From: a virus
DNA length: 64,000 nt
Strand: one strand, 5' to 3'
IMG/VR virus record: IMGVR_UViG_3300043466_002666
Below, piece by piece: positions 478 to 13,589 of the stretch. Position 1 is the first letter of the stretch, and each line of letters starts with the position of its first letter. Position numbers and translations under genes: made by a program. The notes below the pieces were generated by a model that saw nothing but the letters and a program-made list of their open reading frames with translations, ran no database searches and was not told where the DNA came from.

Positions 478-1533
478 TTACCTATCCTTGTGCTTCAGTA
501 GATACGAGTTGGCAATTGCTTTGAAAGTGAAATCACTATCCCACGATTTGAATACAATACCTTCACGACGGGTTTGTGGGTTCAGCGACGGACCCTCAGC
601 AAAGTTAAGAAGGTCATCAATGGTTTCGTATTCTTGAGTGAGAAAAACATGTTGGTCGATGATAGGAACATACTCAATGTCAGCACCAAGCATTCTCAGT
701 TGGTCCAGAACAGCATAACGTTCAAAGGGTTTAAAATAACGACCTTCAGTGATACTGTAGATGTCAAACAGATAGAAACGCTGACCTTTGAGTTTCTCAG
801 GATTACCTTGAATACCCTCACCAATCAGTTCACCTTGAATGGCATACTCTTCACCCTTTTCTTTACTCAGTTCAAGCAAAGGTTCAATGATATTTTGATC
901 CCGTGCTGCTTTCCAGAAACTATTACCTTCAGTTTCTTTCAGATCAATATTCCGAGAACACACACCAATCTCACCATCTTTGATGTAGATAGTGGTGCTA
1001 CTACCATCAAGTTTGAGAGTTACTTCATAGGTGTCATCCTTGTGAGTTTCAAAGATGTCTTTACGAAGATTTTGGCAACGCTCCTGGTCAGTTTTAGGAA
1101 TGAAGTGTGGGAAGTTACCCTTCATCGTTCCCTGAAGTTGAGCAGGAATAGGTGGTTCCCACTTCTGAATATTCAAAATATGAGATACATCTTCGCCCAC
1201 AGAAGCATCATTAGCAATAGAACCGAGACAGTTCAATGGTAACAAAAGACCCTGACTAACTTGACCACGAAGTTTAACAGTGCGAAGACGTTCACCTTTC
1301 ACATCATTATATTCACGAGGTTCTTTGCCATTACTGAGAAATGGAGCCAGTTCATGTGGAACCCAACTATCAATCTCAAAATATACAGCAATATCACCAA
1401 CCTTATACTCATCTTTACGAATAACTACTGGCCAACCACCATCAACGATGGCACACTCAATAGCATCAGCACCCTCAATGGGTTTGATGTATGTGATAGG
1501 TTTGATCGAAGCAAGTTTACGCACAGTGTTCAT
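478..1533 (-). CDS. RNA ligase, DRB0094/Rnl5 family
   Basis: N-terminal OB-like module (RKLASI...VYFEIDSWVP...RLRTVKLRGQVSQGL), FIPKTDQER, motif I KLDGSS, QGELIG, FYLFDI, EGIVFK, FKAI. Confidence 0.9.
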   Translation of the reverse strand: MNTVRKLASIKPITYIKPIEGADAIECAIVDGGWPVVIRKDEYKVGDIAVYFEIDSWVPHELAPFLSNGKEPREYNDVKGERLRTVKLRGQVSQGLLLPLNCLGSIANDASVGEDVSHILNIQKWEPPIPAQLQGTMKGNFPHFIPKTDQERCQNLRKDIFETHKDDTYEVTLKLDGSSTTIYIKDGEIGVCSRNIDLKETEGNSFWKAARDQNIIEPLLELSKEKGEEYAIQGELIGEGIQGNPEKLKGQRFYLFDIYSITEGRYFKPFERYAVLDQLRMLGADIEYVPIIDQHVFLTQEYETIDDLLNFAEGPSLNPQTRREGIVFKSWDSDFTFKAIANSYLLKHKDR

Positions 1534-2027
1534 CAGAAGTCTCCTTTGCCTTGAGCAACGTCAAAAGTAAATATACCACGATCCTGCCACATTGTCAAGA
1601 CCCTTTTACGATCATCAAAGACTGCAAAGATTTCGTAATCTTTCTCAATAATGTCAGCAATCTCTGCCTTCACAATTGCATCATCACGATGGTCTTGATA
1701 CTTTCTCATATAGAGACCATTGTAATCATCCTCCATGATTCCATGCTCCTCTAACCACTTTACAGTTACATCACGATAATCATCAGATCGACCACTCACA
1801 AAGAAAACAGGAAAGAAATACTTCAATGAATGAAACATTGCAAGTACTTGCTTTACAGGTTCATCTTGACTGATTCCTTTGTTCCATGCATCCCAGTTTC
1901 TAGGTTTGGTTGCAACAAATTGACGACGATGTTTTACATCACAAAGAGTACCATCAAGGTCAAAAATGATGCACTTGTCTTTAGGAGTATTCGTAGAGGA
2001 ATCCATGATTAGTGGTGTAATGAACAT
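1533..2027 (-). CDS. HAD-family polynucleotide 3'-phosphatase (T4 PseT C-terminal-domain-like); true start may be ATG 2006
   Basis: IFDLDGTL (DxDxT), VSGR, MR..DHRDD..VK and FDDR motifs as in the PNK phosphatase domain. Confidence 0.85.
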   Translation of the reverse strand: MFITPLIMDSSTNTPKDKCIIFDLDGTLCDVKHRRQFVATKPRNWDAWNKGISQDEPVKQVLAMFHSLKYFFPVFFVSGRSDDYRDVTVKWLEEHGIMEDDYNGLYMRKYQDHRDDAIVKAEIADIIEKDYEIFAVFDDRKRVLTMWQDRGIFTFDVAQGKGDF

Positions 2028-2358
2028 GAGTAATACCAGCTTCTTTCAATGCAAGCTGACAAATAGGACATGGGCGGGCCATTCGTAGTTTACCTTGTGG
2101 ATTGACCCTTGCAACGATCACAGTATCAACTTCTTCACGACACTTAACAAGTGCTGCAATCTCTGCATGTAGATAGATTTTCTCTGCAAGTCCTACACGC
2201 TCTGCAAACTTGGCTTGAAGTGGATGTGATTTGGTTTCAAGATTAGTTGCACTTACAATTACTTTGTTCTTGTTCAGTAGGAGTGCTCCTACTTGTTTTT
2301 TAGAAGGAGAGCTTTTTGCAGTTGCAATTACTTGGTCAAATACCGAGTCAGAAATCAT
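1981..2358 (-). CDS. zinc-dependent cytidine/dCMP-deaminase-fold protein
   Basis: LHAEIAAL and ARPCPICQ (HxE...PCxxC) signature, N-terminal VGALL strand. Confidence 0.85.
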   Translation of the reverse strand: MISDSVFDQVIATAKSSPSKKQVGALLLNKNKVIVSATNLETKSHPLQAKFAERVGLAEKIYLHAEIAALVKCREEVDTVIVARVNPQGKLRMARPCPICQLALKEAGITHVHYTTNHGFLYEYS

Positions 2359-2858
2359 CAGGCCACCTGCAATTTAAGATGCGTACCATCATGTGTCATG
2401 ATGACATCAAAACCTTCATCTTCGGTTGGCATTTCAAATTGGTGATACATGCGAGTGATAACGGATCGTGGAATGAACTTGTTCGCTCTTTGCGAATTGC
2501 GAATGATAGCATCTTCCAATTTAATAGGAAGAACTACAATAGTCTTGGTATAGGTATCTGGAATTCTCTTGAGTTTCTGTTTGCGAGACTTCTTGGTTAG
2601 ATTAGTTTGATCCCAGAGAATTGACTTTTCATGCTGAATGGCATAGTCAAGTTGTTCAAACATCTTAGTAGTTGCTTCAGTAATTACATCATCAAATACT
2701 TCATTATATGATTTATCTACAGACCTTGCATACTCTTCAATGTAGTCGTCTGTAGATAGAATCACATACTCATCAAAAGTATCTGTGTTTTCAGTTCCTC
2801 TGCGAATGTAAGTAGACTTACCTGCACAGGGAATACCACACATCATAATCAGTTCCAT
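2358..2858 (-). CDS. P-loop polynucleotide-kinase-like protein (AAA_33 / PseT kinase domain, stand-alone)
   Basis: GIPCAGKST Walker A, LSTDD, WDQTNL, RNSQR lid, FEMPTEDEGFD C-terminus. Confidence 0.85.
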   Translation of the reverse strand: MELIMMCGIPCAGKSTYIRRGTENTDTFDEYVILSTDDYIEEYARSVDKSYNEVFDDVITEATTKMFEQLDYAIQHEKSILWDQTNLTKKSRKQKLKRIPDTYTKTIVVLPIKLEDAIIRNSQRANKFIPRSVITRMYHQFEMPTEDEGFDVIMTHDGTHLKLQVA

Positions 2859-4012
2859 GAAATACCTCCGAACATCCAGCGAGAATCGTTGAGTTTAGTT
2901 TGAGAAGTCAGAGACTTCTCGATTGAATCAATGAGTAGTTGCTTACACTCTTTACCTTGTTTCATGCCAAACATAAATGGACGATGAATAGGTAAAAGCA
3001 TTCGGTTTACAAATTCAACGGCAAACTCCTTTTTGTCTGGATACATCATATCACCACCTTTGAAGATCTTGGTGAGGTCTGAGGACACCTCATCAACTGC
3101 ACACCAGAACTTCTGTTGGAAATCTTTGAGTCGCTGGGCATCCTCAGAAGTTAGCAAAGGAATCATATCATCTACAGAATCATTGAGAATAACTTGAATG
3201 ATATTCTTCTCTGAGTTGATTTGTTCTTTTGAACGATGGCGTAGAATGTATTCATCTGCTTTAATCTTGACCATGTGACCGTCATCAAAACGAATCACTA
3301 CACCTTCACCATCATCCCATTTACGAATGTGATCTACAATCTTTTCGATATCAGTTTCATCACCAGCAATAGCCTTTACAACAGGAATAGCATAATTTTT
3401 TCCTGTTTCAACCATCTGAGAATATGGAATGTAATTTCCACTACGCATATCTCGCACAGCAGTTAAAATTAACTGGTCGTCTGAATAATCAACTACAATA
3501 CGATTCTTTCGTGAACACCATTCAAATATAGGTGTTAACCCACATGCAAAACTTGATTTAATAAACTTAGCATATTCTGGCTTATCTGCAACAAAATACT
3601 CTGCATTCATTGCAACATCAGTAATACCAGCTTTTGTGCCTAGTCGAAAACCTTCTGGTGTTGGAATGGGACGAATCATCGAACCATCTAGCTTTTCTAG
3701 AACTACATGAGGTTGAGTTAAATCAATCTTATCTAAATTAGTTTCTTCTCGCTCACCTACATTGAAGAACTTATGGTATGGGCGAGAAATCAAATTACCA
3801 GTAGCAGTATCAAAGATCATACCACGACATTCACGACGAATCTTCATATTATAATGACTACGCTCACGAACAAGTGAGAAAGTCTCTTCAAATGCTACCA
3901 TGTAATTGATAACAGTGTACCAATCTTTTTGCATCACTTTAAATTCTTGCCAATCCTCAATGTGTGGAATGACATCATCAATGTGATCAATTTCTGGAAA
4001 GTCGTAGTTCAC
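2849..4012 (-). CDS. rnlA: RNA ligase 1 (T4 RnlA-like)
   Basis: RECRGMIFD, SRPYHKFFNVGE, EKLDGSMI, FEWCS..NRIVVDY, EGVVIRF, KIKADEY motifs; GTG start. Confidence 0.9.
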   Translation of the reverse strand: MNYDFPEIDHIDDVIPHIEDWQEFKVMQKDWYTVINYMVAFEETFSLVRERSHYNMKIRRECRGMIFDTATGNLISRPYHKFFNVGEREETNLDKIDLTQPHVVLEKLDGSMIRPIPTPEGFRLGTKAGITDVAMNAEYFVADKPEYAKFIKSSFACGLTPIFEWCSRKNRIVVDYSDDQLILTAVRDMRSGNYIPYSQMVETGKNYAIPVVKAIAGDETDIEKIVDHIRKWDDGEGVVIRFDDGHMVKIKADEYILRHRSKEQINSEKNIIQVILNDSVDDMIPLLTSEDAQRLKDFQQKFWCAVDEVSSDLTKIFKGGDMMYPDKKEFAVEFVNRMLLPIHRPFMFGMKQGKECKQLLIDSIEKSLTSQTKLNDSRWMFGGISWN

Positions 4013-9510: not shown

Positions 9511-9567
9511 AGTATAGGACAAAGGACTCAAGAGGTCAAGAAAAAATGGACAGCTCAGTTACTGTCC
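9511..9567 (-). promoter_or_regulatory. sigma70-type promoter TTGACC-17-TATACT with upstream dyad GGACAG-N8-CTGTCC (may also act as a terminator hairpin)
   Basis: -10 at 9511-9516, -35 at 9534-9539, inverted repeat 9545-9570 followed by T6 on the minus strand. Confidence 0.75.
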
Positions 9568-9771
9568 ATTCAGCTGCTCTAGCTCGTTGGTGAGTGCTAG
9601 TAAATCAGTTTTATCAATCACAGAAAGATTGTTGAGTTTCTGTGCTGTCATAGTTTTTACATGTTCTGTGGTTTTACGAATAATTGCAGCAACTAGCTTT
9701 TCTTCTGTATCTGCCCATGCATTGCGTTCTTGCCATATCTCAGACATTAATTGTTGTGCTCTTTGTGTCAT
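9559..9771 (-). CDS. hypothetical protein, ELEAL-related
   Basis: MTQRAQQLMSEIW...AAIIR...LTNELEQL. Confidence 0.75.
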   Translation of the reverse strand: MTQRAQQLMSEIWQERNAWADTEEKLVAAIIRKTTEHVKTMTAQKLNNLSVIDKTDLLALTNELEQLNGQ

Positions 9772-9772
9772 A

Positions 9773-10102
9773 TCAATCCCAAGGTGCCGGTTTTTTCATA
9801 ATCTCTTTTAATCTTTCAACTACTTTAGGGTCTGGTGGTTCATTCAAGCGTTCTACAAGTGCATCAAAGTTTTCTTTTGATAGAATAATCTTTTCTGGTG
9901 GATAAGAACCCTTACCCCAATACTCTTCAAACTTATGAACATAATTCATATGATCCCAACCATGATTGAGAGAAACCCAAAACTCTTCCCAAACATAATA
10001 ATCATCAAGGCGAAATCCTTCATGACTGATCAGACGATACCACCACCAGAATGGCGTATAACGGAGAAATCTATTTGAAATGATTAATTTATGAAAGTTC
10101 AT
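9773..10102 (-). CDS. Trp-rich protein with DUF1778/TacA-antitoxin-like C-terminus
   Basis: start ATG 10102; EEFWVSLNHGWDHMN motif; C-terminus KIILSKENFDALVERLNEPPDPKVVERLKEIMKKPAPWD. Confidence 0.6.
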   Translation of the reverse strand: MNFHKLIISNRFLRYTPFWWWYRLISHEGFRLDDYYVWEEFWVSLNHGWDHMNYVHKFEEYWGKGSYPPEKIILSKENFDALVERLNEPPDPKVVERLKEIMKKPAPWD

Positions 10103-10401
10103 TTCTTCGCCCAAGAATACTCATACATATACATCCAACCATCATTCATCTCACTCCACATCGCATAAGGAAGTTTATAAGAATACTTCTTATCTCTCAT
10201 CCAATAAGACCACGCCTCCCAAGCATTTGCTATATTTTGAAATCCCCAGATAAAGTGTCTCCACTTCTCATTATCATACACCCAGTCGTTGTTTGTATCA
10301 AATGGGTTCCACCTGAAGTGAGGTTCAAAATCACCATCATAGCAGTAACGATTATACTGCTTGCGGGTGTAGTTTTTATATCGTTGTAGGAGATTATCCA
10401 C
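10099..10401 (-). CDS. Trp-rich hypothetical protein
   Basis: probable GTG start at 10401 (8-nt overlap with the upstream TAA); AMWSEMNDGWMYM motif. Confidence 0.6.
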   Translation of the reverse strand: MDNLLQRYKNYTRKQYNRYCYDGDFEPHFRWNPFDTNNDWVYDNEKWRHFIWGFQNIANAWEAWSYWMRDKKYSYKLPYAMWSEMNDGWMYMYEYSWAKK

Positions 10402-12553: not shown

Positions 12554-12718
12554 TTAGTCTGCGTAGTCGAAAGTGTAATCGTAGTCGTGGTCTGTGGCGT
12601 AGTCATCATAGGACTCTTCATCGTACTTGTCAAGCCCCTTTTTGCGATAAATCTCATCAAGTTTGATTTCATCACGAATTTGATCCAGAATGGATCCTCG
12701 GTAACTTAAATAAGCCAT
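12554..12718 (-). CDS. small acidic hypothetical protein (not in ORF track)
   Basis: MAYLSYRGSILDQIRDEIKLDEIYRKKGLDKYDEESYDDYATDHDYDYTFDYAD*, 54 aa, GAGG RBS. Confidence 0.6.
   Translation of the reverse strand: MAYLSYRGSILDQIRDEIKLDEIYRKKGLDKYDEESYDDYATDHDYDYTFDYAD
12605..12633 (-). promoter_or_regulatory. sigma70-type promoter TTGACA-17-TATGAT (inside a CDS)
   Basis: consensus -35, 17-nt spacer, near-consensus -10. Confidence 0.65.
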
Positions 12719-12743
12719 AGACGAATCCTCGTTTAACTGTAAT

Positions 12744-12772
12744 AATATATATGAGATTTATGGATTTGTCAA
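12744..12772 (-). promoter_or_regulatory. sigma70-type promoter TTGACA-17-TATATT
   Basis: intergenic, upstream of the 12718 start. Confidence 0.7.
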
Positions 12773-12794
12773 GGGGTTCGGTGATCAGTAAAAC

Positions 12795-12932
12795 TTATGA
12801 ATCTAATAAATGAGTTTGATTTTTTAGATCAGTGTCTGCAATGTGCATCATAAGAATAATCTTATTGACTAACACTTGCAGTTCTTTGAGTTGGGTTTCA
12901 ACAGATTCTATTCTGTTGGCCAACTCTGACAT
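12795..12932 (-). CDS. small coiled-coil hypothetical protein (not in ORF track)
   Basis: MSELANRIESVETQLKELQVLVNKII...*, 45 aa. Confidence 0.45.
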   Translation of the reverse strand: MSELANRIESVETQLKELQVLVNKIILMMHIADTDLKNQTHLLDS

Positions 12933-13060
12933 ACTGCTATCCATTCATCAAACTCCTCACCAATTGAAATTGCATCTTCATAACGACCTTCTTCAAGTAA
13001 TTGTTGAAAACGGTCACAACGTTCTCTAAGAATTTTATCGAGAATTTTAGTTTTGTTCAT
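12908..13060 (-). CDS. small hypothetical protein (not in ORF track)
   Basis: MNKTKILDKILRERCDRFQQLLEEGRYEDAISIGEEFDEWI...*, 50 aa, ATGA-coupled. Confidence 0.6.
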   Translation of the reverse strand: MNKTKILDKILRERCDRFQQLLEEGRYEDAISIGEEFDEWIAVCQSWPTE

Positions 13061-13329
13061 GATACTTTACCCCATTTGCCAATAGGACATGATCCAGTTT
13101 TGAGTCTGGTTTTTGCACTCATAAAGCATCCACATCGACGACATTGTGTAGTTTTGGCATTGAAGTCTTCACAGGATCTACAGGTAGACATTCTTGCCTC
13201 CTGTACTTTGGATTCTACAAAGATGGACTTGCCCTTGGCAAGCTCTCCGATAGAATCTGTAACAGTATCGGAGAGCCCCTTGAGTTTGTCCATCAATTCA
13301 TTTCTGATGTCATTGGGGTTAGACATCAC
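13057..13329 (-). CDS. Cys-rich putative metal-binding protein (DUF6171-like)
   Basis: R..TCRSC...QCRRCGCFM..K......CPIGKW. Confidence 0.75.
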   Translation of the reverse strand: MMSNPNDIRNELMDKLKGLSDTVTDSIGELAKGKSIFVESKVQEARMSTCRSCEDFNAKTTQCRRCGCFMSAKTRLKTGSCPIGKWGKVS

Positions 13330-13532
13330 TCAGATACTACTTCAGTTTCTGATAGTTCAGATGCAACTTCTTCTTCTGGAGTTAGAAGAGTCAAACCTTC
13401 AATAGCTCCTTGAAGTTTTACAAAAAGTTCTTTCTTTTGATTTAATTCGATTTCAAGTTTACGAATTTCATCCATAGTCTGAGCTTGCTGAGACTTGAAG
13501 TTTTCTAGTAGTTGTTCAGGTGTCATTGTCAT
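13326..13532 (-). CDS. coiled-coil hypothetical protein
   Basis: 68 aa, KLQGAIEGL heptads. Confidence 0.75.
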   Translation of the reverse strand: MTMTPEQLLENFKSQQAQTMDEIRKLEIELNQKKELFVKLQGAIEGLTLLTPEEEVASELSETEVVSE

Positions 13533-13560
13533 TTGTGTTACCTAGAATGGTGAAAGGGTA

Positions 13561-13589
13561 ATCGTAACATATTTATCATGGTTTGTCAA
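13561..13589 (-). promoter_or_regulatory. sigma70-type promoter TTGACA-17-TACGAT with a late box GATAAATA (13570-13577) in the spacer
   Basis: read directly from the sequence upstream of the 13532 start. Confidence 0.65.

Follow-up and report, generated by a model that had tools for sequence, protein, structure and literature searches.

A small minus-strand gene of a cyanophage was found to encode a protein whose last ~40 residues are, judging from sequence comparisons, very probably homologous to the toxin-binding tail of the TacA/DUF1778 antitoxins, and whose N-terminal region is a tryptophan-rich helical domain rather than the ribbon-helix-helix (RHH) domain of those antitoxins. All positions refer to the window, that is, the whole 64,000-nucleotide stretch of viral DNA that was analyzed (IMG/VR record IMGVR_UViG_3300043466_002666). 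We propose that this gene, hereafter the tail gene, may be an orphan antitoxin module that neutralizes TacT-type toxins of the host, a proposal that we consider evenly poised between right and wrong. Because the tail looks like a real TacA tail and is accompanied by neither a DNA-binding domain nor a partner toxin, the proteins disarmed by the phage product would likely be host GNAT toxins.

The tail gene and its product

The tail gene (9773–10102, minus strand) encodes 109 residues, beginning with an ATG at 10102 and ending with a stop codon at 9773–9775, as evident from the list of open reading frames (ORFs) and their translation. A longer ORF of the gene (9773–10114, minus strand), which starts with a less likely TTG at 10114, provides the 113-residue numbering used here. 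We preferred ATG 10102 to TTG 10114 because the N-termini of the homologues, which read M(N/V)(F/L)(H/N)K in the alignment, align there, and on this sequence evidence the ATG is probably the true start. The ORF at 9773–10114 ends in EKIILSKENFDALVERLNEPPDPKVVERLKEIMKKPAPWD, and the translation was identical to the protein end quoted in a preliminary description of this DNA; positions 9773–9895 correspond exactly to those 40 C-terminal codons and the stop codon. We found 375 homologues of the tail protein (E ≤ 1e-3), all of ~110 residues. In the alignment of 26 of them, the tail was kept in every member.

Structural features of the tail and its similarity to TacA antitoxins

The TacA-like tail (9776–9901, minus strand; residues 72–113), as identified with Pfam, the PDB, hhalign and AlphaFold, is organized in the following order: a short strand (IIL), a helix (KENFDALVERLNE), a PPDP linker, a second helix (KVVERLKEIMKK) and a terminal PAPWD. 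The AlphaFold model placed the two helices at residues 80–91 and 96–107, one on each side of PPDP. Upon alignment of the 26 homologues, we found that the conserved columns (I76, L78, D84, L86, P93, P96, P111 and W112) were largely those that are also kept in host TacA tails.

A profile search of the last residues against DUF1778, which had been put forward as a check in the preliminary description, was positive, with the Pfam score itself below the cut-off. In particular, PF08681 (TacA1) was the sole Pfam match of the window protein and covered the tail only, at positions 46–76 of the 80 in the profile. The whole protein scored 15.2 bits and the tail alone 17.9 bits (E 0.0031), both below the TacA1 gathering threshold of 21 bits. 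Sixteen of the 26 family members matched TacA1 on their own, with a best E of 1e-4. A profile built from the 26 tails was then compared with all PDB sequences, and the top match was the DUF1778 chain 7f37_C (E 4.7e-5), to whose last residue the alignment runs; a second TacA-type chain, 7ak7_C, was matched at E 0.056. In both chains, the in-register alignment reached the extreme C-terminus. When the phage family was compared with 19 picocyanobacterial TacA proteins, hhalign revealed a probability of 94.4% and an E of 9e-8, pairing phage residues 75–113 with TacA residues 53–91, and the probabilities ranged from 90 to 94% across comparisons of the phage family with host TacA. As a specificity control, an HMM of the host TacA proteins was applied to the 924 six-frame ORFs of the window, where it matched only the tail ORF (E 8e-5); the next-best ORF gave an E of 1.9. 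The likeness of the C-terminus to the neutralizing segment of DUF1778 antitoxins, as initially described, was thus supported by Pfam, by the PDB profile search and by hhalign.

The tail profile was additionally searched against 1.84 billion representative proteins at E ≤ 1e-3, which revealed 146 matches. Among them were RHH-bearing TacA1 proteins (P0182, E 2e-6, and P0256; the TacA1 assignment was precomputed), and TacA1 in turn matched 72 of the 131 short hits, with a best E of 1e-17.

These comparisons bear on an alternative that we regard as unlikely, in which the tail is a short helix-PxxP-helix-PW hairpin of a general binding type that arose by convergence or was long ago re-purposed, and its partner is a protein other than a GNAT toxin. 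The sub-threshold Pfam score of the window protein is in line with such a hairpin, as are the shortness of the similarity to TacA, which extends over only ~39 residues, and the two extra residues that most of the phage tails have after the linker compared with host TacA. A similar motif, D.D.L...L..P.DP...EIL....PWDD, was found at the N-terminus of the acetone carboxylase gamma subunit (5m45_C and 5svb_C, residues 17–49; E 0.007 against the tail profile). This likeness is due either to chance or to a recurrent helix-PxxP-helix-PW hairpin, and because acetone carboxylase gamma is unrelated, convergence on such a hairpin is conceivable. The reciprocal profile matches, including the retrieval of an RHH-bearing TacA1 protein at E 2e-6, argue against the hairpin reading, and so do the in-register alignment to the C-terminus of both PDB chains and the confinement of the host-TacA HMM to the tail ORF within the window.

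The toxin-binding region of KacA consists of a strand (residues 52–56), a helix (57–70), a PPAP linker (71–74) and a second helix (75–86); this C-terminal region wraps around the toxin, interferes with the binding of acetyl-CoA and keeps the toxin from dimerizing, and the R77A substitution abolishes neutralization (PMC6698736). The strand-helix-PxxP-helix layout is common to KacA and the phage tail. In a manual register, KacA W61 would be matched by F83 of the phage protein, V64 by L86 and R77 by position 101, which is mostly basic.

The N-terminal domain

The tryptophan-rich helical domain (9902–10102, minus strand; residues 5–71) occupies the place of the RHH domain. Its invariant residues in the 26 homologues were W23, W25, R27, H31, D38, F45, W46, Y58, F62, E63, W66, G67 and G69. 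AlphaFold predicted residues 1–71 to be entirely helical without a leading strand, in a model of the tail protein with a pLDDT of 71.6 and a pTM of 0.33. We found no RHH domain: TacA1 positions 1–45 were not matched, hhalign paired the tail only, and no RHH family matched. The suggestion that a tryptophan-rich domain replaces the DNA-binding domain is consequently upheld by the Pfam coverage, hhalign and AlphaFold.

The N-terminal domain had no match in Pfam, PHROG or NCBIfam, and the whole protein had none in PHROGs, NCBIfam or PADLOC. Foldseek revealed nothing at E ≤ 0.001 for the AlphaFold model against the PDB, and the best match of VIA-align among 48,161 chains had a Z-score of 4.5 and consisted of generic helical hairpins. 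The ESM Atlas, searched by features, gave no match to the model; searched by shape, it gave viral hypothetical clusters only (TM ≤ 0.41), and TacA1 was present in 13% of the members of one of these clusters. The nulls of these fold searches on the N-terminal domain are no sign of a new fold.

The tail as a module on many scaffolds

The matches to the tail profile were mostly small proteins that carried the tail at the extreme C-terminus behind many unrelated N-termini, and the carriers were found in phage-like contigs and in isolated phages. The scaffolds included the tryptophan-rich domain of the window protein, several further tryptophan-rich variants and a short acidic leader (MTxEELEDFKKM), while tail-only proteins contained 37–60 residues. 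In a metagenomic protein (P0224; L235, 437–865), a dCMP/cytidine-deaminase-like domain was fused to a tail that scored 26.8 bits, and its contig contained small overlapping ORFs. A relative, P0147, reached a TacA1 score of 25.4 bits, which is above the cut-off. ORF73 of Yersinia phage vB_Yru_GN1 (L233, 1144–1329), which is 62 residues long, has a short leader and the tail without an RHH domain and also scored above the cut-off at 21.8 bits; the tail-only design is therefore not confined to cyanophages. S-PM2p014 and S-SZBM1_102 (126 residues) presented the tail on yet another tryptophan-rich domain, with S-PM2p014 ending in PRD and not in PW.

In S-PM2 (L236, 380–872) and S-SZBM1 (L121, 1480–1972), a conserved 54-residue ORF corresponds to the first half of the window N-terminal domain and stops after ...FWWSINGKV. 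The 126-residue gene, encoding a tryptophan-rich domain and the tail, follows it in another frame, with an overlap of 53 nt in S-PM2. This arrangement might be the scar of a recombination event, a site of frameshifting or simply a pair of separate genes. Long matches to the tail profile (>500 residues) with multiple matching stretches were rejected as unrelated repeat proteins; one protein that was scanned (P0217, 294 residues) was TPR-like.

We tentatively suggest, at somewhat less than even confidence, that RHH-less proteins with a TacA tail constitute a large modular class of phage counter-defense genes, in which a toxin-gripping module of ~40 residues is shuffled among scaffolds or acts by itself as a peptide of 37–60 residues, both in cyanophages and in one or more enterobacterial phages. 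If this is true, phages would commonly face TacT/AtaT-type GNAT systems as an abortive-infection barrier and would have to disarm them.

Genomic context of the tail gene

The window derives from a T4-like cyanomyovirus, as evident from its gp32, gp59, baseplate, tail-tube, PhoH and ThyX genes, and has a GC content of 36%. Its sole DNA relatives among phage records were Kyanoviridae of Synechococcus, none of them close, and the tail gene is missing from the nearest virus record (45 kb). A scan of bacterial genomes for the family returned a single phage-like contig, which had been assigned to an Acetobacteraceae metagenome-assembled genome (MAG). In this MAG from Lake Mendota, two short contigs (L002 and L008) showed a tail-protein homologue of 69% identity and a cyanophage-like ThyX of 71% identity; they are probably cyanophage contigs that were mis-grouped in a bacterial MAG.

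The tail gene belongs to a block of small minus-strand genes, most of them joined by overlaps of four bases. The upstream gene (10099–10401, minus strand; ~100 residues, with a likely GTG start at 10401) encodes a second tryptophan-rich protein without a tail, and its GTG overlaps the stop codon of a preceding 60-residue ORF as GTGGATAA. Over the N-terminal 92 residues of P0133, a 137-residue metagenomic protein with a TacA-like tail at its end, the upstream protein showed 45% identity (E 3e-23). The downstream gene (9559–9771, minus strand; 70 residues) has a weak match to phrog_303, of unknown function, and is the last before a terminator-like hairpin (9544–9571, minus strand), which a consensus scan recognized, as a pattern match only, from an 11-pair stem followed by a T run. 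This hairpin probably ends the transcription unit that contains the tail gene. Strong, near-consensus sigma-70-like promoters, likewise pattern matches only, were found upstream of the tail gene at 12633, 12772 and 13589 on the minus strand, within 12605–13589; promoter-like sites numbered 32, compared with 16 in shuffled sequence. Early expression would fit this pattern of promoters and hairpin.

The order of the genes also raises the question of whether the tail protein is the antitoxin of a phage-borne non-GNAT pair, for example with the upstream tryptophan-rich protein, and serves addiction or superinfection exclusion. We consider this highly improbable. The stop codon of the upstream gene and the ATG of the tail gene share the bases ATGA, an overlap of the kind seen in coupled pairs, and the two-ORF arrangement recurs in S-PM2 and S-SZBM1. 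However, the coupling of the two genes is not specific, because four-base overlaps join most genes of the block, and P0133 has the tail in the same polypeptide, which fits domain shuffling and not a toxin-antitoxin pair. Moreover, no toxin family in Pfam or PHROG matched the upstream protein, and the S-CREM1 gene just downstream of ORF106, the homologue of the tail gene in that phage, was unrelated to the upstream gene of the window; this was the sole neighbor of ORF106 that was compared. The upstream gene was accordingly rejected as a toxin partner, given its tail-fused homologue P0133 and the generality of the overlaps.

The preliminary description had placed the tail gene within a tRNA-protection theme set by a nearby RNA-repair operon. 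The RNA-repair block is indeed present (478–4012, minus strand) and contains, from 478 upward, genes for an OB-fold RNA ligase, a PNKP-type HAD phosphatase, a dCMP-deaminase-like protein, a P-loop kinase (AAA_33/Zeta-toxin-like) and a T4 Rnl1-like ligase. It lies ~5.8 kb from the tail gene, with some 25 small genes in between. In S-CREM1 as well, an RNA ligase is located a few genes away from ORF106. The shared theme is weak: the link between the tail gene and the operon is circumstantial because RNA repair and toxin neutralization would counter different tRNA lesions.

GNAT toxins were not found in the phage genomes searched and are present in the host clade

No GNAT toxin gene adjoins the tail gene, whose neighbors are small genes without a GNAT match; in related contigs, the neighbors are small hypothetical genes. 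A TacT query revealed no homologue in the complete genomes of S-CREM1, S-SZBM1 and S-SRM01, while the same query gave four and six matches in two host genomes as a positive control. The earlier observation that a GNAT toxin is not adjacent therefore held for the neighboring genes and extended to three complete related phage genomes.

We examined a sample of 401 genomes from the GTDB family to which Prochlorococcus MIT 9302 belongs; this family comprises Prochlorococcus, Synechococcus and Cyanobium. PF08681 was found above the cut-off in 121 of the genomes, in up to 9 copies, and the picocyanobacterial genomes that bear TacA1 were mostly 2.1–4.1 Mb in size. Among the named carriers were Synechococcus sp. 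WH 5701, a number of strains from fresh or brackish water, and Cyanobium sp. BSA11S, in which a TacT homologue is encoded at 837681–838181 of NZ_CP154799.1; other toxin subtypes occur at the loci L094, L113 and L117. All 19 host TacA copies that were inspected had a co-directional ORF just downstream; 18 of these ORFs are, by sequence, full-length TacT-like GNAT toxins and one looked degraded. Comparison of one host toxin with solved structures matched TacT, KacT and AtaT at E 1e-33. In a second scan, with another host toxin as the query, few cyanobacteria were among the matches listed.

At one locus (L117; genome G081, contig C1, 1431500–1437800), three TacA-GNAT pairs of different subtypes were located within 6.3 kb, one of the toxins looking degraded, and at another (L096) the TacA locus lay among Phd/YefM-like and RHH antitoxin genes. 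These regions thus look like toxin-antitoxin islands. The TacT of Cyanobium sp. BSA11S shared 74–82% identity with homologues from many Beta- and Gammaproteobacteria; such identity across phyla suggests a recent horizontal spread of the TacA-TacT pair.

No PADLOC model matched the host TacA-TacT pair, and we found no report in the literature of GNAT toxin-antitoxin systems restricting phage. This leads to a further interpretation, which appears distinctly improbable to us, in which the target is a GNAT acetyltransferase outside toxin-antitoxin systems, or a host toxin that is held for the phage's own use, for example to tune the shut-off of host translation. The known partners of the tail family have the GNAT fold, TacT-type systems have yielded no evidence of phage defense in the literature that we found, and fusions such as P0224 suggest that the tail can act as a docking device for other activities, all of which would agree with a role outside defense. 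In contrast, the characterized partners of DUF1778 tails are all TacT/AtaT/KacT-type toxins, the three complete related phage genomes contain no GNAT gene, and the tail-only proteins have no other activity to deliver.

A possible mechanism of toxin neutralization

The proposal of an orphan antitoxin module is built on what was observed, namely that the sequences are related, that the RHH domain is missing, that the phages show no toxin and that members of the toxin family occur in the host clade. According to this proposal, the last ~40 residues would have been descended or copied from the toxin-binding segment of a DUF1778/TacA protein, with its strand, helix, PxxP, helix and terminal PW, and a phage-specific tryptophan-rich domain would have replaced the RHH domain that serves DNA binding and dimerization. 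The tail gene would be transcribed early from host-type promoters, and its product would bind picocyanobacterial TacT-type GNAT toxins in the manner of the cognate antitoxin tail. By analogy with KacA and KacT, the toxin would be wrapped, acetyl-CoA binding would be blocked and toxin dimerization would be prevented. Once the labile antitoxin of the host disappears in the course of infection, aminoacyl-tRNAs would therefore escape acetylation, and phage translation would continue. We infer the binding, the neutralization, the timing of expression and the defense role of the toxin.

The constancy of the tail while the N-termini vary was counted in favor of this mechanism, as was the position of the gene block behind sigma-70-like promoters. 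Several points were counted against it. The mechanism gives no part to the N-terminal domain, although this domain is strongly conserved. A TacA tail usually recognizes only its own toxin. Additionally, the authors of the S-CREM1 paper report that CB0101, the host of S-CREM1, lacks a TacA-TacT pair (PMC9964418), which would also agree with the generic hairpin discussed above.

Comparison with known phage proteins and antitoxins

The closest described relative is ORF106 of S-CREM1, which belongs to the same protein family and lies in a similar genome region to the tail gene. BLASTP aligned it to the window protein with 62% identity across 85 residues, and tblastn with 59% across 106 residues. 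ORF106 is annotated as a 'Tac antitoxin peptide' from an internal Met, and the tblastn similarity continues upstream of that start. In 2023, it was listed as TacA and suggested to counter host toxin-antitoxin systems (Viruses 2023, PMC9964418). The counter-host idea is thus already published for ORF106 and is not wholly new. To this the present analysis contributes four points: the tail occurs without an RHH domain, it has spread as a module over many scaffolds, no toxin was found with it in the phages, and the toxin family exists in the host clade. The missing RHH domain, the breadth of the family and the host TacT genes are not mentioned in the accessible part of the S-CREM1 paper (PMC9964418), and in the accessible parts of the other phage sources we likewise found no mention of the first two.

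S-SZBM1_102 has been labeled a 'DUF1778 domain-containing protein', and a 2023 table lists the Klebsiella phages VAC13 and VAC66 with DUF1778 proteins. These proteins and S-PM2p014 are RHH-less or DUF1778-labeled and have the same tail, whereas their N-terminal domains differ from that of the window protein; they are known from annotation lines. No experimental test of RHH-less phage proteins with a TacA tail was found in the literature.

Compared with the DUF1778 antitoxins of the GNAT-RHH type II systems (TacA, AtaR and KacA), the phage protein shares the C-terminal strand-helix-PxxP-helix-PW segment. It differs in that it has no RHH domain and no adjacent GNAT gene, is encoded by a lytic phage, scores below the Pfam cut-off and, in most members of the family, has two extra residues after the linker. 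Dmd of T4 is a phage antitoxin against RnlA and LsoA. An antitoxin mimic of ICP1 acts against DarTG, and DarG-like NADAR enzymes of T4-like phages act against DarTG1 (PMC11257639). In each of these cases, a phage gene without a toxin supplies the neutralizing activity, as proposed here for the tail gene. In contrast to them, the toxin class of the tail gene would be the aminoacyl-tRNA acetyltransferases, the binding tail alone is kept on varied N-termini, and the protein is known from its sequence.

Few type II toxin-antitoxin systems are as common as the GNAT/DUF1778 pairs, and those of the TacT/AtaT type have so far been studied mainly for persistence. A widespread phage gene that carries only the toxin-binding tail would be indirect but strong evidence that GNAT toxin-antitoxin systems restrict phages. 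If this is true, aminoacyl-tRNA acetylation joins the tRNA-directed defenses that phages must counter. Being short, conserved and carried by many different scaffolds, the tail would further offer a compact natural inhibitor to studies of the TacT family and of toxin-antitoxin specificity. For cyanophage genomics, the proposal offers a testable function for one of the many unnamed genes of the early block.
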